Assembly (NCBI GenBank): GCA_964413645.1
Contig: CAYPSA010000001.1
Coordinates: 159,129 to 223,128 of the forward strand
Reading direction: 5' to 3'
Source: an uncultured Gammaproteobacteria bacterium
GTDB lineage: Bacteria; Patescibacteriota; Microgenomatia; UBA1406; HO2-37-13b
Length of the DNA stretch: 64,000 nt
The translations under genes were made by a program, and so were the position numbers. Every line of letters starts with the position of its first letter. Positions within the stretch are counted from its first letter, which is position 1. Shown here in pieces: positions 9,388-54,062 of this stretch. Under the pieces are notes generated by a model. That model saw only the letters and a program-made list of their open reading frames with translations, did not search any database and had not been told where the DNA came from.

Positions 9388-9404
9388 GATTCTAAAAACA
9401 AGTT

Positions 9405-9708
9405 GCGCGACTGACCGGACTGCCAACCGGCGACCTGTCCGACAACTGTCGGACCGCTCTAACCAACTGAGCATATGTATGCGCGACTGACCGGACTGCC
9501 AACCGGCGACCTGTCCGACAACTGTCGGACCGCTCTAACCAACTGAGCATATGTATGCGCGACTGACCGGACTGCCAACCGGCGACCTGTCCGACAACTG
9601 TCGGACCGCTCTAACCAACTGAGCATATGTATGCGCGACTGACCGGACTGCCAACCGGCGACCTGTCCGACAACTGTCGGACCGCTCTAACCAACTGAGC
9701 ATATGTAT
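9405..9708 (-). repeat. four perfect 76-bp tandem repeats, each a tRNA-Asp-derived pseudo-tRNA
   Basis: The unit gcgcgactgaccggactgccaaccggcgacctgtccgacaactgtcggaccgctctaaccaactgagcatatgtat recurs at 9405, 9481, 9557 and 9633. Each unit keeps the D-arm, variable loop and T-stem of the adjacent tRNA-Asp. The anticodon arm is replaced by a perfect 7-bp stem with a 4-nt loop, the T-loop is 8 nt, and the 5' acceptor strand is degenerate. Confidence 0.9.
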
Positions 9709-9709
9709 G

Positions 9710-9783
9710 CGCGACTGACCGGACTCGAACCGGCGACCTTCCGCGTGACAGGCGGACGCTCTAACCAACTGAGCTACAATCGC
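9710..9783 (-). tRNA. tRNA-Asp(GUC)
   Basis: Acceptor GCGATTG/CAGTCGC, D-arm GCTC-AGTTGGTTA-GAGC, anticodon stem TCCGC/GCGGA with loop CTGTCAC, and T-arm GCCGG-TTCGAGT-CCGGT. Confidence 0.85.
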
Positions 9784-10040
9784 TTTAAAGATATTTTTTT
9801 ATTCGTAACTATTTTATCAATTATTTCCTTACTTTTAAGCTTTTTCAGGCTGCTCTCAATCCTACGTGCTTCAATCAAAGTTTCAAACTGCTGACAAAAC
9901 ACCATTGTAAATGGTAATGTTGATTTCGTTGCTTTCACTTTTCCTCTATTGTGCTCATCTAATCTTCGGTCGATATCACTCGATGAGCCAATATAATATC
10001 TCTTATTCTTATCTGACTGTAAAATATAAACGAAACTCAT
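9774..10040 (-). CDS. small GIY-YIG nuclease family protein (UPF0213/YhbQ-like, 88 aa)
   Basis: MSFVYILQSDKNKRYYIGSSSDIDRRLDEHNRGKV is a canonical GIY-YIG core. The ORF is AT-rich between GC-rich tRNA-like flanks, and its last codons AAG-CGA-TTG-TAG overlap the 5' acceptor stem of tRNA-Asp. Confidence 0.8.
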   Translation of the reverse strand: MSFVYILQSDKNKRYYIGSSSDIDRRLDEHNRGKVKATKSTLPFTMVFCQQFETLIEARRIESSLKKLKSKEIIDKIVTNKKISLKRL

Positions 10041-10097
10041 AACCGGCGACCTGTCCGACAACTGTCGGACCGCTCTAACCAACTGAGCTACAATCGC
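10041..10097 (-). repeat. partial pseudo-tRNA(Asp-like) copy: 5' acceptor, D-arm and pseudo anticodon hairpin, truncated at the T-stem where the GIY-YIG ORF starts
   Basis: GCGATTGTAGCTCAGTTGGTTAGAGCGGTCCGACAGTTGTCGGACAGGTCGCCGGTT is followed directly by the GIY-YIG ATG. Confidence 0.8.
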
Positions 10098-13456: not shown

Positions 13457-13527
13457 GTCATTCTGAGTGACGCTACTGTCATTCTGAGCCAGAGGCGACC
13501 TGCCTGCCGGCAGGCAGGAGAATGACA
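13457..13527 (+). repeat. MITE-like palindromic repeat (GTCATTCTGAG family), two tandem 5' half-copies plus a GC palindrome
   Basis: gtcattctgag at 13457 and 13478, the perfect palindrome cctgcctgccggcaggcagg at 13499-13518, and a terminal gagaATGACag that supplies the nth start codon. Confidence 0.8.
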
Positions 13528-14202
13528 GCTAATTTTATGATTAAAAACGAAACCCCCGAAGACATTCTAGATCGCAAAGAACGTGCAAAAATTGTAAATC
13601 AACAACTCACCAAGCTTTTTCCTGAACCAAAAGTAGAACTAAATTATTCAAATGTGTGGGAGCTTTTGGTAGCAGTTATTTTGTCTGCCCAGTGCACCGA
13701 TAAACGAGTCAATATTGTTACAGAAAAATTATTCAAAAAGTATCCAACAATTACCGACTACTGTAATGTTTCATCTGAAGAATTTGAAAAAGATGTCGCA
13801 TCTATTAATTTCTTTCGTAACAAAACTAAAAATATTCTTGCGGCTGCAAAATTAATTCATAATAGTTTTGGAGGAGTAGTACCCAAAACTATGGCAGAGC
13901 TCATGTCTGTTCCAGGAGTAGCTCGTAAAACTGCAAATGTAATATTGAACGACGGATATGATATACAGGAAGGCATAATTGTAGATACTCACGTAATACG
14001 ATTGTCTAATAAATTTAAACTTACCGACGAAAAAGATCCAGTAAAAATCGAACGTGATCTTATGGAAATAGTTCCGAAGAAAGAGTGGAAATATTTTTCA
14101 CATCGTTTAGTGCATTATGGACGACGAATTTCAAAAGCACGTCATACGCTCAGCAATGATGATCCAGTGAGTGTGGCTCTTGCAGCCGCGCATTTAGCCT
14201 AG
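13522..14202 (+). CDS. nth: endonuclease III family DNA glycosylase (HhH-GPD) lacking the C-terminal [4Fe-4S] cysteine cluster
   Basis: LVAVILSAQCTDKRVN and VPGVARKTANVIL carry the catalytic Lys, and VDTHVIR carries the catalytic Asp. There are no Cys residues in the C-terminal 60 aa. Confidence 0.8.
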   Translation: MTANFMIKNETPEDILDRKERAKIVNQQLTKLFPEPKVELNYSNVWELLVAVILSAQCTDKRVNIVTEKLFKKYPTITDYCNVSSEEFEKDVASINFFRNKTKNILAAAKLIHNSFGGVVPKTMAELMSVPGVARKTANVILNDGYDIQEGIIVDTHVIRLSNKFKLTDEKDPVKIERDLMEIVPKKEWKYFSHRLVHYGRRISKARHTLSNDDPVSVALAAAHLA

Positions 14203-14528: not shown

Positions 14529-15951
14529 TATAAGCGATCTTACCATTGAAAAAGCTCAAGAGCTCCTTAGAAATAAAGAGCTTTCTGCTTCGGATCTTGT
14601 TGGCGCATGTATGGATAATATCATCAAGCATAATCCCACATTGAATGCTGTACTTACTGTCAATGGCACCGCGCTTGCCGATGCAAAAGAAGCAGATGCT
14701 CTTATTGCGCAAGACCCAAATATTTTTCAAGAGAAGCCACTTTTGGGTATTCCATTGCTCCATAAAGATGTTTATTCGACTAAAAATCTACGAACTACCG
14801 CAGCTTCAAAAGTTTTGGAAGAATATATTCCTCCGTATGATGCCACCGTCGTAAAGAAATTGCAAGAAGCTGGCGCTATAACGTTGGGAAAGACAAATCT
14901 AGACGCATGGGCGCACGGATCATCCGGTGAAAATTCAGATTTTGGTGCTACAAAAAATCCATATGACTTAGAAAGAACTCCAGGGGGATCAAGTAGCGGG
15001 TCTGCTGCCGCACTAGTGGCAGGTATGAGTTTGGTTACAACTGGCACAGACACGGGAGGATCAATTCGACTGCCAGCAGCTTTTTGCAACATCGTGGGTC
15101 TGAAACCAACATACGGTCGAGTGTCGCGATATGGAATTATAGCAATGGGATCTTCATTTGATTCCATTGGTCATTTTACACGAACAGTAACTGATAGTGC
15201 CAAAATTCTTTCTGTAACTGCTGGTTTAGACCGTCACGACGGTACAACAGTTCCACATACTCCCCCCCAGTATCATGAGAATTTGTCAGCGACCTCACTC
15301 AAAGGAAAAAAAATTGGAATCGTTAAAGAATTTGATCAAACAGGTTCCGATAAAGAAGTATCAGACGTGACAAAAAAAGCAATTCAAAAAATACAATCAC
15401 TTGGAGCAGAAATTGTAGAAATATCACTTCCACATGCAAAGTATGCTATTGCAACCTATTATATTCTTATACCTGCGGAAGTAAGCTCTAACTTGGGTCG
15501 TATGACAGGAACACGCTTTGGTAAGGGGTTTGAGGCTTTCGGCGATGAAGCAAAACGACGTATTATTATTGGCACCTACACATTATCGGCAGGGTATTAT
15601 GATGCGTATTATAATAAAGCGCTCAAAGTTCGCACGCTTATTAAAAATGATTTTGACAAAGCATTTGAAAAAGTTGACGCACTTGTATGCCCGGTTTCTC
15701 CAACCGTTCCATTTAAACTTGGCGAAAAAGCCAAAGATCCATTAGCGATGTATTTATGTGATGTGTTTATAGCTCCCATGAGCTTGGCCGGCGTTCCATC
15801 ACTATCAGTTCCAGCCGGATCAGTCAATGGTTTGCCGGTGGGAATTCAATTTGTGACAAAACATTTCGATGAAGAAAGTCTTTATAAGATTGCCTTTGCC
15901 TACGAGCAGGCGAGAGGAGATATTGAAGGATTAAATAAAGTGTCATCCTGA
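14521..15951 (+). CDS. gatA: Glu-tRNA(Gln) amidotransferase subunit A (amidase)
   Basis: Amidase signature GGSSSGSAAALVAG. The start MNNISDL overlaps the gatC stop by 8 nt. The stop TGA lies inside a GTCATCCTGA repeat. Confidence 0.9.
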   Translation: MNNISDLTIEKAQELLRNKELSASDLVGACMDNIIKHNPTLNAVLTVNGTALADAKEADALIAQDPNIFQEKPLLGIPLLHKDVYSTKNLRTTAASKVLEEYIPPYDATVVKKLQEAGAITLGKTNLDAWAHGSSGENSDFGATKNPYDLERTPGGSSSGSAAALVAGMSLVTTGTDTGGSIRLPAAFCNIVGLKPTYGRVSRYGIIAMGSSFDSIGHFTRTVTDSAKILSVTAGLDRHDGTTVPHTPPQYHENLSATSLKGKKIGIVKEFDQTGSDKEVSDVTKKAIQKIQSLGAEIVEISLPHAKYAIATYYILIPAEVSSNLGRMTGTRFGKGFEAFGDEAKRRIIIGTYTLSAGYYDAYYNKALKVRTLIKNDFDKAFEKVDALVCPVSPTVPFKLGEKAKDPLAMYLCDVFIAPMSLAGVPSLSVPAGSVNGLPVGIQFVTKHFDEESLYKIAFAYEQARGDIEGLNKVSS

Positions 15952-15992
15952 ACGATCAGTCTGTCATCCTGAGGCAGAGCCGAAGGAGCTCA
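15942..15992 (+). repeat. MITE-like repeat, GTCATCCTGA half-copy pair plus hairpin
   Basis: gtcatcctga at 15942 and gtcatcctgag at 15963, followed by gcagagccgaaggagctcag. Confidence 0.75.
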
Positions 15993-16008
15993 GTAAAATA
16001 CTAATATT

Positions 16009-17358
16009 ATGAATAATTACAAACCAACAATCGGACTTGAAATTCATGTAGAGCTTTCAACTAAAAGTAAAATGTTTTGTAGTTGTCCTGCTGACTGGTT
16101 TGGAAAAAAACCAAATACTCATACGTGTCCAGTTTGTTTAGGATTACCAGGAGCTCTTCCTGTTGCCAACGAAAAAGCAATTGAATGGACAATAAAAATT
16201 GCTCAGGCACTTAACTGCACCATTCCATCAATCTCAAAGTTCGATCGAAAGCATTATATTTACCCCGATCTTCCAAAAAGCTTTCAGCTTAGTCAATATG
16301 ACGAACCTATTGGACAAAAGGGAAGCCTAAGTGTGCATTTTGATTCAATTGATAGTATCAAAAGCTTTGGAATAACCCGCGTACATTTAGAAGAAGATGC
16401 CGGAAAACTTATTCATAATGGTACTGAGTCTTGGGTTGATTACAATCGATCTGGAGTTCCGTTAGTAGAAATAGTAACTGAACCAGATTTCCATTATTCT
16501 TCAGAAGTAAAAAAATTTCTTGAAGAATTACATAACCTTATTAGGGCATTAGAAGTTTCGGATGCGAATATGGAAGAAGGTTCTATGCGACTTGAGCCGA
16601 ATATATCCGTTGGCTTGTCATCTTCGACCTCGCTGCCTCCATATAAAGTTGAGGTAAAAAATATCAATTCATTCAAGTTTGCTAAAAATGCAATTGATTA
16701 CGAAGTAAAACGACATATAGAAATTCTTGAAAAAGGAGAAATTCCGGTGCAAGAAACTCGAGGATATGTAGAAAAGAATGCATCTACTATTTCCCAACGT
16801 ATTAAGGAAGAAGCACAAGATTACCGATATTTTCCAGAACCCGATATTCCACCACTGATGTTCTCAAATGAGTATGTCGAGAGTATTAAGCGTACAATTC
16901 CCGAATTACCCTCCGCACGACTTGTTCGATATGTAAAAAATGAGGGAGTCTCGTTTAACGATGCTTATATCATTACGCGCAGTGTAGAACTTACAGAGTA
17001 TTTTGAAAAACTCATCGTCATTCTGAGATCCTTGCCTGCCGGCATGCAGGAAGCGAAGAATCCGAGTGTTACATCATCTAGACTCGCTTCTATGCTCGTA
17101 AACAAACGCATTTCGATGGCCGATTCTCCTAAGGACTCAATCAAAAAAGCAGTCGACTCATCTTCTCCAATCCAGACAGACGAATCAGCGCTCTCAGAAG
17201 CAATTAAAAAAGTAATTTCCGAGCAACCCAAAGCCGTAGCAGAGTACAAATCAGGCAAGGAAACAGTCCTTATGTTCCTAGTTGGAATGGTTATGCGTGA
17301 AATGAAAGGTCAGGCAGATGCGAATACGGTGAAAGAAAGCCTGATTAAATCTCTCTAG
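16009..17358 (+). CDS. gatB: Asp-tRNA(Asn)/Glu-tRNA(Gln) amidotransferase subunit B
   Basis: MNNYKPTIGLEIHVELSTKSKMFCSCPA at the N-terminus and a GatB/YqeY-like C-terminus. Confidence 0.9.
   Translation: MNNYKPTIGLEIHVELSTKSKMFCSCPADWFGKKPNTHTCPVCLGLPGALPVANEKAIEWTIKIAQALNCTIPSISKFDRKHYIYPDLPKSFQLSQYDEPIGQKGSLSVHFDSIDSIKSFGITRVHLEEDAGKLIHNGTESWVDYNRSGVPLVEIVTEPDFHYSSEVKKFLEELHNLIRALEVSDANMEEGSMRLEPNISVGLSSSTSLPPYKVEVKNINSFKFAKNAIDYEVKRHIEILEKGEIPVQETRGYVEKNASTISQRIKEEAQDYRYFPEPDIPPLMFSNEYVESIKRTIPELPSARLVRYVKNEGVSFNDAYIITRSVELTEYFEKLIVILRSLPAGMQEAKNPSVTSSRLASMLVNKRISMADSPKDSIKKAVDSSSPIQTDESALSEAIKKVISEQPKAVAEYKSGKETVLMFLVGMVMREMKGQADANTVKESLIKSL
17017..17075 (+). repeat. MITE-like repeat copy embedded in-frame inside gatB
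   Basis: gtcattctgagatccttgcctgccggcatgcaggaagcgaagaatccgagtgttaca begins on codon 337 and reads VILRSLPAGMQEAKNPSVT. Confidence 0.7.
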
Positions 17359-18079
17359 CCCCAAATTCTCGGGGAATCATGCGAACATATAGCCCATTGT
17401 TCCAGTTTGTAAATTCGGATAAAGCGCCGTACTCACCCTCAAATCTGTCTGTATTGATAGTATGAAGCGGCATATCCTCTCCTTTGTCGTAAGGTGTTAT
17501 TTCGTGTAATCCACTTGATCGATTGACCGCCTCCTTTAAAGGATAGAGCAGCGTAAGGTAGCTGTCAGAAACAGCGTCAATACGAAACCCTGCTTTTAAT
17601 TTAGCTTGAATAGAAGCGGGCTTGCTTAATTTTACTCGAGTTACTACGAGGGGTAGATTACTTTGTGAAGCCCACCCAACGCGTGCTTGAGTAATTTGAG
17701 TATTTAGCCCGTGTCCACGGTATTCAGCTTGAGTAAATGCATCAGTTATAAATGCATAGCGAGATTTCGCTGATAAATGATAATAAGGATAATGACAGCT
17801 TTGAGCACGAACACTACCAGCAGCAATTATTTGATTTTGATCGAATACTGCAAAAACTGCAGGATCTAAATAACTATCTCCAGTTCCAACAAGCCCGTTT
17901 GTGTCTAAAATATTTTCGTAATACTTAAATTTTCTAGATTTGTGATCATCTGAAAGAGGATGCCCATCATGAGCATTTTTCCAGATTTCCCAGTCTACCA
18001 GTTCATTAACGGTCTGTAGTCTTCTGGCTGGACCCACTCTCAATACGTCCTTGGGTGGCTCTAAAAGTATTTCTTTCAT
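17345..18079 (-). CDS. hypothetical protein, possibly GNAT-fold acyltransferase-like
   Basis: AFITDAFTQAEYRGHGLNTQI weakly resembles GNAT motif A; no other recognisable domain. Confidence 0.3.
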   Translation of the reverse strand: MKEILLEPPKDVLRVGPARRLQTVNELVDWEIWKNAHDGHPLSDDHKSRKFKYYENILDTNGLVGTGDSYLDPAVFAVFDQNQIIAAGSVRAQSCHYPYYHLSAKSRYAFITDAFTQAEYRGHGLNTQITQARVGWASQSNLPLVVTRVKLSKPASIQAKLKAGFRIDAVSDSYLTLLYPLKEAVNRSSGLHEITPYDKGEDMPLHTINTDRFEGEYGALSEFTNWNNGLYVRMIPREFGAREI

Positions 18080-18103
18080 GTCCTATATATATCAAATCGC
18101 ACG

Positions 18104-18132
18104 TAGACACTCTCCCGCATCTTTTGTATACT
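18104..18132 (+). promoter_or_regulatory. promoter TAGACA-17-TATACT, with the dnaE ATG 7 nt downstream (leaderless)
   Basis: TAGACA at 18104-18109, TATACT at 18127-18132, ATG at 18139. Confidence 0.5.
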
Positions 18133-18138
18133 GTGCAC

Positions 18139-21100
18139 ATGTCGTTTACCCATTTACATGTTCACTCCGAATATTCATTGCTCGATGGACTCACTAAAAT
18201 TGACAAACTCGTTGAAGCTGCCAAAGAACAAGGTAGTAGCGCAATTGCTCTTACCGATCATGGAGCAATGTATGGAGCATTTCGATTCTATAAATCTGCA
18301 AAAGCGGCTGGAATTAAGCCAATTATAGGGGTAGAAGCGTATAAGGCAAAAAAAAGCAGATTCGATCAAGCGGGTACCGAGCGTGACCAACATCACCTCC
18401 TTCTTCTGGCAAAAGATAATACTGGCTACAAAAATTTAATGAAGCTTGTTACAAAAGCGCACCTTGAAGGGTATTACTATAAACCTCGCATGGATTTTGA
18501 GATTCTTAAAGAACATTCAGAAGGGATTATCGCAACATCTGGTTGTCTGAATGCCGATATTCCCTCGCTTATTCGCAATGATCAAATAGAAGAAGCCGAG
18601 GACGTTTTAAAGCAGTATTTAGATGTCTTCAAAGATAATTTTTACATTGAGTTGCAGCGATACAGAAACATAGATGATTTAGACCGGGTCAACAAAAAGT
18701 TGCTTGAATTTTCTCGAAAATTCGGTGTTCCTTTAATAGCAACAAATGATGTTCATTATCTAAAACCCGAAGATGCATATGCTCAGGAAGTTCTTCTTTG
18801 TATCCAGACACAGCACAATATGCATGAAAAGAATAGGCCGATGTCTATGCTTGAAACTCCTGAATTTTACTTAAGAACTCCCGATGAAATGAAAACGTTG
18901 TTTTCAGATCTTCCGGAAGCAATTGAAAACACGAATAAGATAGCTGACGTGTGTAATGTAGAAATTCCATCAGGTACGTGGATTGTTCCAAACTACCCAT
19001 TGCCTGAAAATAGGAATTCCTCAGAACATCTTATGGACCTAATACTAGAACGAGCACCAGCTCGAAACCTCGATGCGAATGATCCGGTAATTAGAAAAAG
19101 GATTGATTATGAATTTGATGTTATTTCAACAAAAGGGTACGCAACATATTTTCTTATTGTTGCAGATTTTGTTAACTGGTCGAAAGATCAAGGAATTGCT
19201 GTTGGACCTGGCCGAGGATCAGTGGCAGGGTCAATTATTAGTTATATTCTGCGTATTACCGATATCAATCCACTAGATTACAACCTCCCGTTTGAACGTT
19301 TCTTAACGATGGATCGACCGACACCTCCTGATATTGATATTGATTTTGCCGATACACGACGCGATGAAGTGCTTGCCTACGTTACCCAGAAATATGGCAA
19401 AGAAAAAGTCGCTCAAATTATTACTTTTGGACGAATGGAGGCACGAATGGCAGTGCGTGACACTGCTCGCGCCTTGGGTCACACATACTCACAGGGTGAT
19501 CGAATTGCTAAAATGATTCCTCTTGGAAAACAGGGATTTGCAATGACTATTGATCGTGCGCTCGACGAGAACCCCGTACTTAAAATTGCATATACAACCG
19601 AGGAAGAAACTAAAAAAGTTCTCGATATCGCGCGGAAAGTAGAAAGTATGGCTCGACACTCATCTGTTCATGCGGCTGGCGTAGTTATTGCTGATAAGGA
19701 TCTAACAGAGTATGTGCCGCTTCAGCGTGAATCTAAAGGAGATCGAATAATTACTCAGTATGACATGTATTGTTTAGATCTAAATGCCGTTTCCGATGGT
19801 CAAGCAGTTGGACTAATGAAAATGGACTTTTTGGGTCTACGAAATCTGACCATTTTGGAAAACGCAATCAAGTTCGTGCAAGAAACGACTGGAAATAAAA
19901 TAGATATCCATACAATCTCGCTTGAAGACAAGAAAACATATGAGCTCATGGCTAAAGGTCAAACTATTGGAGTATTTCAACTTGAATCGAGTGGCATGAG
20001 AAAGCTTGCTAAAGAACTTGCACCTAATAAGATGACCGATATTTCAGCTATGGTGGCTCTATATCGCCCCGGACCTATGGATCTTATTCCTAGTTTTTTG
20101 GCGGGAAAGAAGAATCCAGGCAAAATACGATACTTACATCCCGCACTCAAACCGATTCTAGAAGAAACTTATGGAATTCTCGTGTACCAAGAACAGGTCA
20201 TGGAAATAGCTCATCGACTTGCTAGTTTTACACTCTCAGAAGCTGATACATTCCGTATGGCTATTGGAAAGAAAAAGAAAGCGCTTATGAAAATTAGTGA
20301 AGCGAAATTTCGCGAAGGCGCACATAAAAATGGATACTCCAAGGATGTTGTCGATAAAATTTATGGATTTATCGAGAAATTTGCTTCATACGGTTTTAAC
20401 AAAGCACACTCAGCTTCATACGCACTTATTGCTTATTGGACGGGGTACATGAAGGCAAATTATCCCGTAGAGTATATGACGGCATTGCTTTCAGCGGAGT
20501 TGCATGGGTCAGCCGGATCTATTCGCGAGCTAAAAATGTTTCAGGCTATTGAAGAATGTCGCATATTAGACATCACTGTCTTGCCTCCAGATATTAATAA
20601 ATCATTTAATGATTTCTCAATTGAAGATGGTGTTATTCGATTCGGCCTTTCCGCAATTAAAAATGTTGGCGCATCAGCCATCGAATCGATTATTTCTTCA
20701 AGGGCTCAAGGACCATTCACAAGTCTTAAGGATTTGCTAACCCGTATCGACACTCGACGGGTGAATAAAAAAACGGTAGAAAGTCTTATTAAGGCAGGAG
20801 CACTCGATGCATTTGGTGACAGACTTGCCGTGCTAACCTATTATCCCGTCGTTTTGGAAGAAGTTGGTCGTTCTAAAAAAGACACACAACTTGGTCAGTT
20901 CACGCTCTTTGCATCTTCAAATGACAGTAGCTTGCTCGATGATTTGGATACGACTCTAGTTGCCACTACGAGTGATTTGCTAAGCATGGAACGGGAAGTC
21001 TTAGGTTTTTCGATTGATAAAAACCCGCTCGCACAATTTGAAGCAATTATTACGCGCAAAGTTACCAAAAAGATAGGAGAAATTACCATAGAAGATGTCG

Positions 21101-24832: not shown

Positions 24833-24840
24833 AATACCAA

Positions 24841-24876
24841 GTCATCCTGAGCGACCGAAGGGAGTCGAAGGATCCC
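24841..24876 (+). repeat. MITE-like repeat, short copy
   Basis: gtcatcctgag followed by the hairpin cgaccgaagggagtcg and then aaggatccc. Confidence 0.7.
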
Positions 24877-24923
24877 AAACAAGGAGATGTTGAAACAAGT
24901 TCAACATGACTAAATGAAAACAT

Positions 24924-27164: not shown

Positions 27165-27226
27165 GTCATTCTGAATGACGGTCATGTCATTCTGAGCGTA
27201 AACGAGAAGCTCGGTGTTACATTCCA
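27165..27226 (+). repeat. MITE-like repeat (two half-copies)
   Basis: gtcattctgaatgac hairpin, then gtcattctgagcgtaaacgagaagctcggtgttacattcc. Confidence 0.75.
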
Positions 27227-27827: not shown

Positions 27828-27903
27828 GGGCCCATGGCGCAATTGGTAGCGCACCTCGTTTGCAACGAGGGGGTTAGGAGTTCGAATCTCCTTGGGTCCA
27901 CCA
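27828..27903 (+). tRNA. tRNA-Ala(UGC), CCA encoded
   Basis: Acceptor GGGCCCA/TGGGTCC with the G3:U70 Ala identity pair, anticodon loop TTTGCAA, T-arm AGGAG-TTCGAAT-CTCCT, and 3' ACCA. Confidence 0.85.
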
Positions 27904-27986
27904 ATTTAGGGGTAAGGAAGTAGTAATCACCCAGAAGGTGATTGCCAGTTCCTAACTTCTAAGTTTGTAAAAAGTCGCACATTAAC

Positions 27987-28001
27987 AATTAGCAGTATAA
28001 G
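27987..28001 (+). other. 5' strand of the pre-23S processing stem; it pairs with 30964-30978
   Basis: aattagcagtataag is the exact reverse complement of cttatactgctaatt, which lies downstream of the 23S. Confidence 0.6.
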
Positions 28002-28092
28002 GTAGAAAAGTCGCATCTAATTTTTTTTAATGTTTATATTTCCCGTGTTTGGGGAAATATATTCTGATTTGTGAGACATTGTCTCAAATTTT

Positions 28093-30920
<2,828 letters not shown>

Positions 30921-31002
30921 GTTTGAGTGCCAATGGCTCACAAATCAGAAACTTTTCTATAAACTTATACTGCTAATTATTACTGTGAGGCTAAACTCAC
31001 TT

Positions 31003-31067
31003 GTCATCCTGAGTGATCCGCCCACTGGCGGAGATCGAAGAATCTCAGTAATCCGTTATCCTGAACT
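31003..31067 (+). repeat. MITE-like repeat copy
   Basis: gtcatcctgagtgatccgcccactggcggagatcgaagaatctcagtaatccgttatcctgaac. Confidence 0.75.
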
Positions 31068-43458: not shown

Positions 43459-44513
43459 CACTCGACGATAAAGCATATATTCAAAAGATAGATTCTGCCA
43501 ATATGATTGGCTCTATTGAACTGCTTGGAAAGCAGATTCAACAAACATGGGATGAAGTAAGCGCACTACCGTTATCAGATTCGTTTAAAGAAATAAAGAA
43601 CATTGTTTTTGCGGGAATGGGAGGATCGGCACTTGGGGCTCATATATTCAAGAACTTGTATGCATCGAGTATTTCCGTTCCTTTTGAAATAGTTAGCGAC
43701 TACAAGCTTCCTTCTTACGTAAATGCAAGCACATTGGTTGTCACTGGAAGCTATTCGGGGACTACTGAAGAAGTATTGAGTTGCTTTGACCAGGCCATTA
43801 CAAAAACGAAAAAAATCATCGTAATTTCTGCTGGAGGACCTTTGGAAGAACGCGCCCATGAAAATAGTATTCCATTTTATAAAATCGATCCCAAGTTTAA
43901 CCCCTGCAATCAGCCACGTATGGGAATTGGGTATTCTATATTTGCACTGCTTACTTTTTTACATACTTTAGGCATAATAACAATTAGTGCTGAAGAGCTC
44001 GCCCAAATCGATGACCTAATTCAAAAAAATAATAGTCAGTTTGGCCTTGCTGCTAATTCAGAAATAAATGTAGCAAAGCAAATTGCTTTTGTTTCACATG
44101 AACAAGTTCCCATACTTATTGCTGGTGAACACTTGGTTGGAGCAATTCATGCTTCTCGTAATCAGATTAACGAGAATGCAAAGTCACTTGCGTTCTACTT
44201 TCCCATTCCTGAACTCAATCATCATCTATTAGAAGGATTAAAATTTCCCACAAGCAACAATGACCACTATGTCCTAATTCATTCCAACGAATACTCTCCA
44301 AAAATCGTGAAACGCATGGAAATTACAAAGGAAGTTTTACAAAAGAGTGGTCACGAAATTACAGAAGTTACTGCTCAAGGAAATTCCAAACTTGCCCAAG
44401 CTATTCAAACTGTGCATTTTGGTTCGTATATCGGATACTACTTAAGCATGTTGTATGGAATCGATCCATCTCCTATTCCAAATGTAGAAAGCTTCAAAAA
44501 GGAACTCGTTTAG
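43455..44513 (+). CDS. bifunctional phosphoglucose/phosphomannose isomerase (SIS-domain, PGI/PMI family)
   Basis: IVFAGMGGSALGAHIF and VVTGSYSGTTEE are SIS motifs. The length and family match archaeal-type PGI/PMI. Confidence 0.7.
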   Translation: MTLDDKAYIQKIDSANMIGSIELLGKQIQQTWDEVSALPLSDSFKEIKNIVFAGMGGSALGAHIFKNLYASSISVPFEIVSDYKLPSYVNASTLVVTGSYSGTTEEVLSCFDQAITKTKKIIVISAGGPLEERAHENSIPFYKIDPKFNPCNQPRMGIGYSIFALLTFLHTLGIITISAEELAQIDDLIQKNNSQFGLAANSEINVAKQIAFVSHEQVPILIAGEHLVGAIHASRNQINENAKSLAFYFPIPELNHHLLEGLKFPTSNNDHYVLIHSNEYSPKIVKRMEITKEVLQKSGHEITEVTAQGNSKLAQAIQTVHFGSYIGYYLSMLYGIDPSPIPNVESFKKELV

Positions 44514-44562
44514 TGATCCGCTAGTTGATTTTACTCCGCCATTTTCTGTACACTAAATATAG

Positions 44563-44664
44563 TCATCCTGAATCCGCAATAGGCGGATGAAGGATCTCGG
44601 TGTGCAAAACACCCAGATTCTTCGTTACCTGCCTGCCGCCAGGCATGGCACTCAGAATGACATA
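44563..44664 (+). mobile_element. full-length ~100-bp MITE-like element with inverted termini GTCATCCTGA...TCAGAATGAC
   Basis: gtcatcctgaatccgcaataggcggatgaaggatctcgg ... ttacctgcctgccgccaggcatggcactcagaatgacat, with an internal hairpin and GC palindrome. The terminal ATGAC supplies the ppsA start codon. Confidence 0.8.
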
Positions 44665-46999
44665 TTATATGCCTAATCAATACATCAAATGGTTCTCCCA
44701 AATCGACAAGCATGACGTTGCTATCGTGGGTGGAAAAGGTGCGAATTTGGGCGAAATGTTTCAAGCAGGTTTTCCTGTGCCATATGGATTTGTTGTAACT
44801 GCCCAAAGCTTTTTTTACTTCATAGAACAGAACAATTTGGAAGCAAAAATATTGCACATGCTCTCGACACTTAACTACGAGAACCCCAAGGAACTTTCCG
44901 ATGTTTCAGGAGATATTCGGAAACTTATTTTAAAAAGTCCTATTCCCAACAAACTAATCAGTGAAATTTTAGACCATTATGAACGACTCGAAATCGAGGA
45001 GTCTAAGCAGTATAAAAATAGGTCGGGAATTTCACAAGTACTAACTCGTCTTAAACATGTATATGATGCGCCATTGGTAGCCGTTCGATCATCTGCTACC
45101 GCAGAAGATTTGCCCGACGCATCGTTTGCAGGACAACAAGAAACATACTTAAACGTAAAAGGAGAGAACCATTTAATCCATAAAATACGAGAGGCATGGG
45201 CTTCTCTTTACACAGAAAGGGCTTGTTATTATCGTCATGCTCAAAAGTACGATCATATCCGAGTAGGTTTAGCCGCAGTAGTTCAACGCATGGTACAATC
45301 GGAAAAATCGGGAATAGCCTTTTCAATTGACCCTGTAACAAATAATAAATCAGTTATTACAATCGAGGCAATCTATGGTTTGGGGGAATACATTGTGCAA
45401 GGGCAGGTAACTCCTGACCACTACGAAGTCGATAAAAAATCATTCTCAATTATTAAGAATCAAATTAAAATACAAAAGGTTAAATTTGTTAAGAAGGGTG
45501 TTGAAAACGTTGAACTTGCTGTTTCAAAAAGTGATGGCGAAAAACAGAAAATAACCGATGAACAAATAATTGATTTAGCAAAAATAGTTGCCAACATTGA
45601 AAAGCACTATTTTTTTCCACAAGACATTGAATGGGCAATAGAAGGCAATTCAATTTACATAGTCCAATCACGTCCAATCACAACAATGAATGAGCATGTC
45701 GCTCAAAATACATCCACATCTCCAAATCAGCGATTACTTGTCAAAGGCGATCCAGCCTCCCCAGGAATTCGATCTGGTAGACCTGTCGTAATAAATTCTC
45801 CAAAAGAAATAGACAAAATCAAAAAAGGCGATGTATTAGTTGCAATGCACACAAATCCCGATTATGTGCCGGCTATGAAAAAAGCAGCGGGAATTATTAC
45901 TGAAACAGGAGGCCGAACAAGTCATGCGGCAATTGTTTCCCGTGAGCTTGGAGTACCAGCTGTAGTAGGCGCAGAAAATGCCACATCACTTTTGCGACAT
46001 GAAAAATTTGTTACCGTTAACGGGGGAACCGGAGAAGTGTTTCGTGGAAATGTACTCATTTCTGATAAGCAGACAGATGAAGAAGAGCACCCCAAGGTGC
46101 AACACCACACTCTTACTCATGTATACGTAAATATGGCTGAAGCTGATCAAGCTCACAAAGTAGCACAAATGCATGTAGATGGCGTTGGTTTGCTCCGTGC
46201 AGAATTTATGATTGCCGATATGGGTACTCATCCAAAAGTTTATGTGCAAGAAGGACGAGAGAAAGAATTTATTAATAAACTCGCGGCTAAATTAACTATT
46301 TTTGCAAAGGAATTTTCACCTCGACCAGTCGTGTACCGTGCTACTGACTTTAAGACAAATGAGTATAAGAATTTAAAAGGCGGAGCTCAGTTCGAACAGC
46401 ATGAGGAAAATCCAATGATAGGTTTTCGAGGCGCAAGTAGATATTTGGCCGACAAAAAAGTATTCGCAATGGAACTTGATGCAATTAAAAAGGTTCGTGA
46501 TGCAGGATATAAAAATGTTAACCTTATGATCCCATTTGTACGTAATCCGCAAGAAATTCGAGATATAAAACAGTTCCTAAGCGACCAGGGCTTTGACGAT
46601 CTACCGTCATTTAAATTATGGGCAATGATCGAAGTTCCAAGTGCAGTAATTATGCTTGATGAAATTCTGGATGCAGGAATCGATGGTATTTCTGTGGGGA
46701 CCAATGATTTGACCATGCTTCTTATGGGCGTTGATCGCGATAATCAAGAAATTGCCTACCTATACGATGAAAGAAGCCCAGCAGTGCTGTGGGCACTTGA
46801 AAAAATTGTTAAAACAGCCCGCAAACACGGCGTCACCGTTTCCGTATGCGGCCAGGCACCTTCCGATTACCCAGAACTTGTTGAGAAACTCGTTGGATGG
46901 GGAGTCACCAGTTTATCGTTGAATCCGGATGCAGTAGATAGAACCAGAGAATTGATTTTTAATGAAGAGAAAAAAATGAAAAGAACAGACGGGCGATGA
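44657..46999 (+). CDS. ppsA: phosphoenolpyruvate synthase (pyruvate, water dikinase)
   Basis: Phospho-His domain GGRTSHAAIVSRELGVPAVVG and a PEP-utilizing C-terminal TIM barrel. The start is set at MTYYMPNQ. Confidence 0.85.
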   Translation: MTYYMPNQYIKWFSQIDKHDVAIVGGKGANLGEMFQAGFPVPYGFVVTAQSFFYFIEQNNLEAKILHMLSTLNYENPKELSDVSGDIRKLILKSPIPNKLISEILDHYERLEIEESKQYKNRSGISQVLTRLKHVYDAPLVAVRSSATAEDLPDASFAGQQETYLNVKGENHLIHKIREAWASLYTERACYYRHAQKYDHIRVGLAAVVQRMVQSEKSGIAFSIDPVTNNKSVITIEAIYGLGEYIVQGQVTPDHYEVDKKSFSIIKNQIKIQKVKFVKKGVENVELAVSKSDGEKQKITDEQIIDLAKIVANIEKHYFFPQDIEWAIEGNSIYIVQSRPITTMNEHVAQNTSTSPNQRLLVKGDPASPGIRSGRPVVINSPKEIDKIKKGDVLVAMHTNPDYVPAMKKAAGIITETGGRTSHAAIVSRELGVPAVVGAENATSLLRHEKFVTVNGGTGEVFRGNVLISDKQTDEEEHPKVQHHTLTHVYVNMAEADQAHKVAQMHVDGVGLLRAEFMIADMGTHPKVYVQEGREKEFINKLAAKLTIFAKEFSPRPVVYRATDFKTNEYKNLKGGAQFEQHEENPMIGFRGASRYLADKKVFAMELDAIKKVRDAGYKNVNLMIPFVRNPQEIRDIKQFLSDQGFDDLPSFKLWAMIEVPSAVIMLDEILDAGIDGISVGTNDLTMLLMGVDRDNQEIAYLYDERSPAVLWALEKIVKTARKHGVTVSVCGQAPSDYPELVEKLVGWGVTSLSLNPDAVDRTRELIFNEEKKMKRTDGR

Positions 47000-53974: not shown

Positions 53975-54030
53975 TCCACATACAGATTCTTCGTCGCAAT
54001 TCGCCAGCTGGCGAAGGTAAAACGCTCAGA
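53975..54030 (-). repeat. MITE-like repeat copy, reverse orientation
   Basis: The reverse complement reads gtcattctgagcgttttaccttcgccagctggcgaattgcgacgaagaatctg. Confidence 0.65.
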
Positions 54031-54062
54031 ATGACCCCATTTATGGTACAATAGTAGGTCAC

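Follow-up and report, generated by a model that had tools for sequence, protein, structure and literature searches.

The palindromic element of about 100 nt that lies immediately upstream of ppsA in a 64,000-nucleotide stretch of Microgenomatia DNA (contig CAYPSA010000001.1, positions 159,129 to 223,128; hereafter the window) consists of two oppositely oriented hairpin units of about 40-50 nt each, which meet at their tails and carry their tags on the outside. It belongs to a multi-copy, mostly intergenic family which occupies eight sites in the 64 kb, one of them inside gatB. It probably represents a tags-outward dimer, similar to REPINs (REP doublets forming hairpins) and BIMEs (bacterial interspersed mosaic elements), of units of the repetitive extragenic palindromic (REP) type, which are either members of the CGTC-tagged REP superfamily or a close variant of it. 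While this kind of repeat is already known, the host from the candidate phyla radiation (CPR), the tandem G·A variant of the stem, and the 20-nt palindrome nested in some units appear to be new. A reading made from the sequence alone had treated the element as MITE-like (miniature inverted-repeat transposable element), palindromic and about 100 bp long; a real multi-copy, non-coding palindromic family indeed exists, but the 100 bp fall into two units of a type measuring about 25-50 nt, and a single unit is found at the ppsA site of a close relative (L125). The features of the ppsA upstream region are as follows.

44525..44554, plus strand: promoter-like TTGATT-N18-TACACT, just upstream of the insertion point; identified by eye, 8/12, sub-threshold
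44562..44598, plus strand: unit A, with GTC at 44562-64, stem ATCCT at 44565-69, GA, centre ATCCGCAATAGGCGGAT at 44572-88, GA, AGGAT at 44591-95, and CTC
44599..44613, no strand assigned: spacer separating the two tails, with a small hairpin GGTGTG-CAAAA-CACC(C)
44614..44661, minus strand: unit B, reading GTCATTCTGAG-TGCCATGCCTGGCGGCAGGCAGGTAA-CGAAGAATCTGG on the minus strand
44628..44647, no strand assigned: nested GC palindrome, a mutated version of CCTGCCTGCCGGCAGGCAGG at the middle of unit B
44657..44659, plus strand: ATG in unit B, within its head (AGAATGAC); distinct from the conserved start of ppsA
44669..44671, plus strand: conserved ppsA start (MPNQYIKW), downstream of the element

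The inverted termini, hairpin, GC palindrome and in-frame ATG described earlier are all present, with coordinates shifted by 1-3 nt: GTCATCCTGA is at 44562-44571 and TCAGAATGAC, complementary to it at 9/10 positions, at 44652-44661, while the hairpin ATCCGC-AATAG-GCGGAT spans 44572-44588, the box GAAGGATCTCGG 44589-44600, the imperfect GC palindrome 44628-44647, and the ATG in frame with ppsA 44657-44659. The inverted termini are the tags of two oppositely oriented units, AGTC in unit A and TGTC in unit B. The latter is parsed on the minus strand, from 44661 to 44614, as GTC-ATTCT-GAG-TGCCATGCCTGGCGGCAGGCAGGTAA-CGA-AGAAT-CTGG. A covariance model trained solely on copies from other phyla and then run on the window matches unit A at 44559-44601 (34.1 bits, E 2.9e-6) and unit B at 44611-44664 on the minus strand (33.5 bits, E 4e-6). 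The fold of the 121-nt region exceeds chance, with -52.6 kcal/mol as RNA (z -7.2) and z -6.2 as DNA; each unit folds separately, its 5-bp stem leading through a 2x2 GA/GA internal loop into a variable hairpin, and the pair can alternatively adopt a four-way structure with the two heads paired. In a relative carrying the same pair (L122), the hairpin in the inter-unit spacer (9931-9956) has a T-run after it and receives a terminator-like score; the T-run has been lost from the window copy.

The unit is composed of a (T/C)GTC tag, a 5-bp stem ATYCT, GA, a variable centre, GA, AGRAT and C(TC), in this order, with centres that may be as small as a GCGAAGC mini-hairpin or include up to 40 nt of additional palindrome. 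The stem forms a genuine, covarying helix: with head and tail searched independently, 244/287 pairs were complementary, representing 11 different 4-mers, and in a 60-sequence alignment a compensatory UA-to-CG change was seen in 22/60 sequences, with the inner pairs covarying and the covariation score exceeding those of all 500 shuffles and all slid controls. The columns at which the stem starts, 7/42 (AU) and 8/41 (UA), are invariant in 60/60 sequences, and all of the window units fit them. Beside the stem, conservation at the sequence level extends to GTC, GA...GA and C. In 151 copies, GTC is preceded by T in 117 (77%), C in 30 (20%), A in 3 and G in 1, ATC is followed by T in 113/151, and in the tail an initial C is succeeded by T (75%) or C (19%) and next by C (46%), CTC being more common than CCA. 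The conserved tail, CGAAGRATC, is shorter than the 12-mer GAAGGATCTCGG, which cannot be called a conserved box: its exact form occurs only once in the window, and with 2 mismatches allowed there are 6 matches vs 3.1 expected, i.e. no enrichment. The minimal unit, ATYCU-GA-GC/GAA/GC-GA-AGRAU, has nine stem positions, two of which are G·A; in the probable partner unit at 24887-24912 of the window, both of these positions are Watson-Crick paired.

The tags-outward dimer is the rule for this family: under relaxed detection, 77 tags-outward, 13 tags-inward and 11 direct arrangements were counted among 268 units, the spacers in tags-outward pairs measuring 4-105 nt, and two or more units were found in 86/120 loci among the matches listed. 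A BIME-like cluster of two unit types in alternating orientation was observed in a metagenome-assembled genome from Lachnospiraceae (L045, 7500-7760), with conserved linkers on the head side (ACCTCATT) and on the tail side (TTTACYRACAG).

Within the window, there are 12 matches to GTCATYCTGA vs 0.33 expected, a number reached in 0/100 shuffles. The covariance model recovers seven units at E<=3e-4 (24838-24879, 44559-44601, 44611-44664 on the minus strand, 15960-15994, 17014-17067, 31000-31049, and 53980-54038 on the minus strand), plus two weaker matches (27183-27215, E 0.07, and a variant at 13475-13529). Altogether, about nine units and three truncated heads are present at the eight sites, so that the earlier count of at least eight further full or partial copies was correct. 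These are listed below.

13457..13525, plus strand: truncated head (13457-13477) and variant unit from 13478, junction of the M48 peptidase and HhH-GPD genes
15942..15993, plus strand: truncated head and unit (from 15963), gatA/gatB junction; E 7.7e-5
17017..17064, plus strand: unit inside gatB, in frame; E 2e-4
24841-24874, plus strand: unit at the atpA/atpG junction; E 4e-7
24887-24912, minus strand: probable partner of the preceding unit at the atpA/atpG junction, GTCATGTTGAACTTGTTTCAACATC on the minus strand, stem fully paired
27165..27215, plus strand: truncated head and degenerate unit (from 27186), atpD/atpC junction; E 0.07
31003..31046, plus strand: unit at the junction of the 23S rRNA 3' end and topA; E 2.5e-4
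53986..54035, minus strand: unit within the spacer that separates the divergent TP_methylase (minus) and uvrB (plus) genes; E 2.9e-4

Each of the truncated heads, at 13457, 15942 and 27165, consists of GTCATYCTGA and about 10 nt more, and lies one 21-nt period ahead of its unit, a repetition that may have arisen by nested insertion or by slippage; the same arrangement, with a period of 19-22 nt before a full unit, was observed in other phyla (L016, L031, L060, L080). The variant unit at 13478 contains a perfect palindrome (13499-13518) and ends in AGAATGAC. The unit at 53986-54035 is probably located in the 5' leader of the minus-strand TP_methylase gene, in the listed ORF (open reading frame) of which the Pfam domain begins at residue 31. 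At the seven window sites between co-directional genes, the tag strand is always sense, which could equally reflect the direction of transcription or of replication. For classical CGTC units with full pairing, the window shows no enrichment (3 vs 1.6 expected). The 23S rRNA gene adjoining topA is preceded by a tRNA-Ala gene (27828-30919 for both), and the 64-kb window contains no 16S or 5S gene.

The ppsA and gatB homologues place the source organism in the Microgenomates group (CPR) and led to contigs from relatives, in which the orthologous junctions were compared.

pgi-ppsA, L126 (82% PpsA identity): empty, TTGATT-N18-TATACT-GAAACT-ATG
pgi-ppsA, L125 (95% PpsA identity): one minimal unit
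pgi-ppsA, L122 (92% PpsA identity) and the window: pair
M48 peptidase-HhH-GPD: genes separated by 4 nt (L127) or 1 nt (L128), against about 85 nt of repeat in the window
gatA-gatB: genes overlapping (ATGA) in L128, with no element; head plus unit in the window and L127
atpA-atpG: 1-nt spacer in L128; filled in the window and L127, with differing units

The occurrence of empty, one-unit and two-unit states at pgi-ppsA, together with the empty sites elsewhere, indicates that the family has spread recently, i.e. during the divergence of these Microgenomates genomes. The suggestion of recent activity is thereby upheld, as insertions are lineage-specific and the orthologous junctions are empty in relatives. 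The empty versions of the filled junctions have abutting or overlapping genes, with hardly any spare DNA. Unit A has orthologues in L122 and in L125, where its centre is different; at atpD-atpC, the 3' unit is orthologous in L127 and L128, and the unit between the TP_methylase gene and uvrB is present in L122 and L125 and absent in L126. Moreover, the L127 unit at atpA-atpG is identical at 43/46 positions to window unit B at ppsA, these two sites being non-orthologous. The number of model matches per ~21 kb is 4-5 in L127, 2 in L128, and none in L126. Between gatB and dnaE, the window has ~790 nt (17359-18144) where L127 and L128 have a 55-nt spacer, indicating an insertion in the window lineage; it holds a 244-aa ORF (17345-18079, minus strand) with a weak, sub-threshold GNAT match.

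In the heads of the units, one strand contains TGA and the opposite strand ATG; a pair hence reads stop...start, and these codons define one real stop (gatA) and false annotated starts (ppsA and HhH-GPD). The proposal that the element donates the ppsA start codon did not hold: in 40/40 inspected PpsA homologues the N-terminus coincides with ATG 44669 and has the form M-(P/N/S/K...)-...-(W)F, the nearest ones starting with MPNQYIKW, MNNQYIKW or MSNQYIKW (MSAYIKW is also among the homologue starts), and the same start is supported by L122, L125 and L126. In L122, the element ATG is out of frame with ppsA and is followed by an in-frame TGA. The ATG at 44645, which is also in frame and was picked as the start by the automatic gene caller (P0001), and that at 44657 are in frame by accident of the window copy. 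For HhH-GPD, the false start is at 13522, while the relatives start at the equivalent of 13537, giving 221 aa. The stop codon of gatA (TGA, 15949-15951) lies inside the head GTCATCCTGA, and the gatA C-terminus has been rewritten.

In gatB, the in-frame unit is translated in the window protein as VILRSLPAGMQEAKN (alignment context EKLIVILRSLPAGMQEAKNPSVT), and the close relatives read VILSEAKNPG/LG at this segment. The minimal unit GTCATTCTGAGCGAAGCGAAGAATC, which L127 and L128 carry in frame, encodes VILSEAKN; the segment is absent from P0128, P0130 and all distant homologues. The loop of the window unit is 21 nt longer and contains the palindrome CTTGCCTGCCGGCATGCAGG (17031-17050), also in frame. 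This comparison shows that a unit has become fixed in an essential gene, with a second palindrome inserted into its loop at a later time, again in frame. The view that the family tolerates and reshapes gene boundaries is thus sustained by the gatA stop and the gatB unit.

The promoter-like motif upstream of ppsA is found at the same position in L126, L125 and L122 in the form TTGATT-N18-TATACT (9/12), and the element is probably part of the ppsA 5' leader, as suggested by its position. At the empty site of L126 (9965-10003), TTGATT-N18-TATACT ends 6 nt ahead of the ppsA ATG, and the ancestral ppsA mRNA may have been leaderless or nearly so.

The GC palindrome found in three window units (CCTGCCTGCCGGCAGGCAGG) represents a conserved sequence by itself. 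A metagenome scan, in which only 11 bases of the 20-mer were required inside a unit, yielded 113 loci of 31-70% GC; nearly all had the full CCTGCCTGCCGGCAGGCAGG, located either directly after GAG or directly before the tail of the minimal unit. In viral contigs, the bare 20-mer was found in 42 copies at 35 loci, never inside a unit. One such contig carries CCTGCCTGCCGGCAGGCAGG in the variable loop of a tRNA-Met (L385, 2239-2330), still called by ARAGORN as a 92-nt tRNA, and in the cases listed with it (L392, 497-545, and L363, near 8616) the palindrome is also found in a tRNA-like D-loop fragment. Exact flanking duplications of 7, 8 or 14 nt accompany 3/39 distinct free-standing copies vs 3/5000 controls, the three copies being L379 3391 (7 nt), L364 1660 (8 nt) and L370 8396 (14 nt). 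An assembly artefact is an unlikely origin for the palindrome in the window, given the diverged orthologous copies in independent assemblies.

An exact-pattern scan of one genome per species yielded at least 120 loci. Among the matches listed, these represent more than 15 phyla and a locus GC content of 0.30 to 0.71, and include Chloroflexota, Acidobacteriota, Bacteroidota, Ignavibacteria, Clostridia, Omnitrophota, Planctomycetota, Nitrospirota, several proteobacterial classes, Melainabacteria and CPR groups. From the pattern and the database size, ~140 chance matches are estimated for the whole collection; Y and R were non-complementary in only 2/155 matches, with half expected by chance. Viral contigs carry the unit as well, the same exact-pattern scan giving a lower bound, while plasmid BLAST returned just two Planktothrix matches. 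In Rfam searches of the window, only rRNA and tRNAs reached the gathering threshold, and the best element matches had E>3 (searched to E<=10). Nothing relevant came up in full-text literature searches with the head and tail sequences, with the peptide translations, or with the 20-nt palindrome, and the motif is not mentioned in RepRanger 2025 or in the HUH phylogenomics paper. Two known motifs were considered and rejected. CUGAG...CGAAG resembles CUGAUGA...GAAA of the hammerhead ribozyme, the GAGGAGCGAAGCGACGAAG class being close, and on inspection either G8/A9 or A14 is missing and there is no three-helix junction; for a K-turn, the required 3-nt bulge is absent.

It is conceivable, if doubtful, that the GA-type YGTC unit and, separately, the 20-nt palindrome are pan-bacterial selfish sequences, staying nearly identical in 30-70% GC genomes and phage contigs and copied by a mechanism that targets hairpin loops; if true, this would constitute an unrecognised, very broad-host-range movement of 20-50-nt hairpins without a linked transposase.

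What can be observed directly is that copies of the unit have entered gene junctions which were very short or overlapping, probable 5' leaders and, in one case, the reading frame of gatB. On the model of RAYT (REP-associated tyrosine transposase) action on GTAG REPs, copying would proceed via a single-stranded hairpin, by a trans-acting enzyme which would read the tag and the stem and would be encoded away from the copies. The inserted units, to judge by their position, would be passengers co-transcribed with the flanking genes; the ppsA pair, located between the promoter-like motif and the conserved ATG, would introduce a stable structure into the leader, and might affect mRNA stability or translation.

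Several observations weigh against the assignment to REP-type dimers moved in this manner. The window, ~14 kb of extra flank and the 2.16 Mb of element-bearing loci yielded no mobilising enzyme, so that the partner transposase envisaged earlier did not emerge and the copying mechanism is one that we infer only. No RAYT gene was seen in the ~78 kb covered of the source contig, which measures at least 230 kb, and tblastn for IS200 over the 2.16 Mb gave no matches, with low sensitivity as a single TnpA query was used; no recurrent protein family lies beside the 120 listed loci, the neighbour clusters being housekeeping only (ABC ATPase, short-chain dehydrogenase/reductase, MurD). The published CGTC stems are fully paired over 8-9 bp, whereas here the minimal unit alone fits, and only if the G·A positions are counted; most units have long variable centres (8-38 nt), unlike the published 4-5-nt loops. 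Single stem mismatches show no excess of G·U over C·A, and the orientation with respect to flanking genes across phyla is unbiased (34 sense and 27 antisense, with crude ORF calls), so that a function at the RNA level is not supported in general.

We regard it as unlikely that the unit is a conserved structured RNA or single-stranded DNA motif, serving as a binding or cleavage site for a universal host factor and maintained by selection rather than selfishly. Such a role would agree with the near-identity of copies in 30-71% GC genomes from more than 15 phyla among the matches listed and in viral contigs, and with the conserved unpaired nucleotides beside a covarying stem and the tandem G·A motif. 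However, presence or absence varies among close relatives, copy number differs between lineages, degenerate and truncated copies occur, and there is no consistent gene context.

A classical MITE of about 100 bp, derived from an insertion sequence (IS) by deletion and moved as a whole by a DDE transposase via 10-bp terminal inverted repeats, with target-site duplications, appears improbable. It would account for the inverted termini GTCATCCTGA/TCAGAATGAC, for the predominance of tags-outward pairs across phyla, and for the ATAT on both flanks of the window copy. Nevertheless, single units are frequent, one of them occupying the same ppsA site in the 95% relative L125, and there are truncated heads and nested units. 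The search for target-site duplications proved negative, none being consistent in four empty/filled comparisons, where the flanks are AT-rich and partly rewritten. The presumed terminal repeat is succeeded by a covarying stem, so that it is pairing within a strand that is conserved, and a transposase was found neither in the window nor in its flanks nor in the 2.16 Mb of loci. The element is therefore best not regarded as a classical MITE, since consistent target-site duplications were not seen and its basic entity is the unit and not the pair.

There is very little chance that we are dealing with independent GC-rich palindromes, intrinsic terminators or mRNA-stabilising hairpins which are alike by composition alone. 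The hairpin centres are GC-rich in a 39% GC genome, and REPs elsewhere have been reported to stabilise upstream mRNA (background cited in PMC3733652). The conserved head and tail, however, are AT-rich and sequence-specific, 44300-44800 contains neither a T-run nor a terminator-like site, and units are found inside operons with downstream genes that need to be expressed (the atp operon, gatCAB). As an origin of the similarity, independent palindromes are refuted, while a stabilising side-effect is possible. Finally, it is scarcely credible that the element is a cis-regulatory RNA dedicated to ppsA (a leader, riboswitch or attenuator) and conserved for control of gluconeogenesis, in spite of a very stable fold and a location between the promoter-like motif and the start codon, as this reading is largely refuted by the distribution of units (also at gatA/B, the atp operon, 23S/topA and uvrB, and inside gatB), the ppsA site is empty in L126 and has a single unit in L125, Rfam gives no match, and orientation is unbiased across phyla.

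For annotation, the family matters in that TGA and ATG within the repeats lead gene callers to misplace starts (ppsA at 44645, the ORF at 13522), while true gene ends have been rewritten (gatA). For genome biology, it shows that a CPR genome of roughly the 1-Mb class, with abutting or overlapping genes, still accepts selfish hairpins of 50-100 nt in essential operons and in gatB, which bears on how streamlined such genomes are. For repeat biology, REPs of the CGTC type have no known transposase, and the empty and filled sites described here in close relatives, together with the near-identical copies from other phyla and phage contigs, provide material for finding the mechanism. Elsewhere in the window (9404-10088), there is a tandem array of four 76-nt copies which terminates in tRNA-Asp(GTC) (9709-9783, minus strand), with a fifth copy of the 48-nt core at 10041-10088, and the adjoining ORF (9774-10082, minus strand) codes for a 102-aa GIY-YIG domain protein.

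Comparison with known systems returns us to the tags-outward dimer of REP-type units. With Correia-type MITEs, the ppsA element shares a length of ~100 bp, inverted termini, lack of coding capacity, placement at gene junctions and co-transcription, but it is built from two separable hairpin units, and neither a target duplication nor a parent IS was found. As in the case of Rickettsia palindromic elements (RPE), a palindromic repeat is retained in frame in an essential gene (the gatB linker, VILSEAKN); the differences are that only one copy in 64 kb is intragenic, most being intergenic, and that the host belongs to CPR. The similarity to REPINs and BIMEs with RAYT from Pseudomonas and Enterobacteria includes short imperfect palindromes with a conserved unpaired tag, most of them paired in inverted orientation across a short spacer, the occurrence of clusters in which the orientation alternates (L045), extragenic location, and multiple copies with lineage-specific abundance. 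However, the tag is YGTC here and GTAG there, so that the element falls outside the GTAG REPINs; neither a RAYT nor an IS200-like gene was observed in the vicinity of the copies, and the sequence is conserved across phyla, while REPINs are species-specific and vertically inherited.

The closest similarity is to the CGTC-tagged REP superfamily of Di Nocera, De Gregorio and Rocco (2013, BMC Genomics 14:522, PMC3733652), which is described from 5 phyla and includes dRS3 of Neisseria and RPE-4 and RPE-6 of Rickettsia. Its tag is CGTC, often TGTC and also CCTC; the stems of 8-9 bp start with A-T, T-A, enclose a loop of 4-5 nt, and are followed by a 3-nt tail with the consensus CCA. No associated transposase is described, and some copies are intragenic and in frame or provide stop codons, the N-terminal ones being probably extragenic. 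Compared with the published families, the units described here differ in having 5 Watson-Crick pairs followed by tandem G·A, centres of 8-38 nt or more, truncated heads with a 19-22-nt period, and a 20-nt palindrome nested in some of them, as well as in their far wider host range (CPR, Chloroflexota, Acidobacteriota, Clostridia, Omnitrophota, Planctomycetota and viral contigs). They agree with it in the tag, with T (77%) or C (20%) before GTC, in the A-T, T-A start of the stem and the short unpaired 3' tail (here more often CTC than CCA), in location at or overlapping ORF ends with stops supplied, in the in-frame intragenic copies, in the lack of a linked transposase, and in the patchy occurrence among relatives. 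The peptide VIPAKAGI of CGTC-1 back-translates, by our inference, to GTCATTCCCGCGAAAGCGGGAATC, sharing the head GTCATTC and the tail GAATC with the present units, and the tags point outward in the same manner as in the intragenic dimers of Additional file 3 of that paper (VIPAKAGI...IPAFAGMT).

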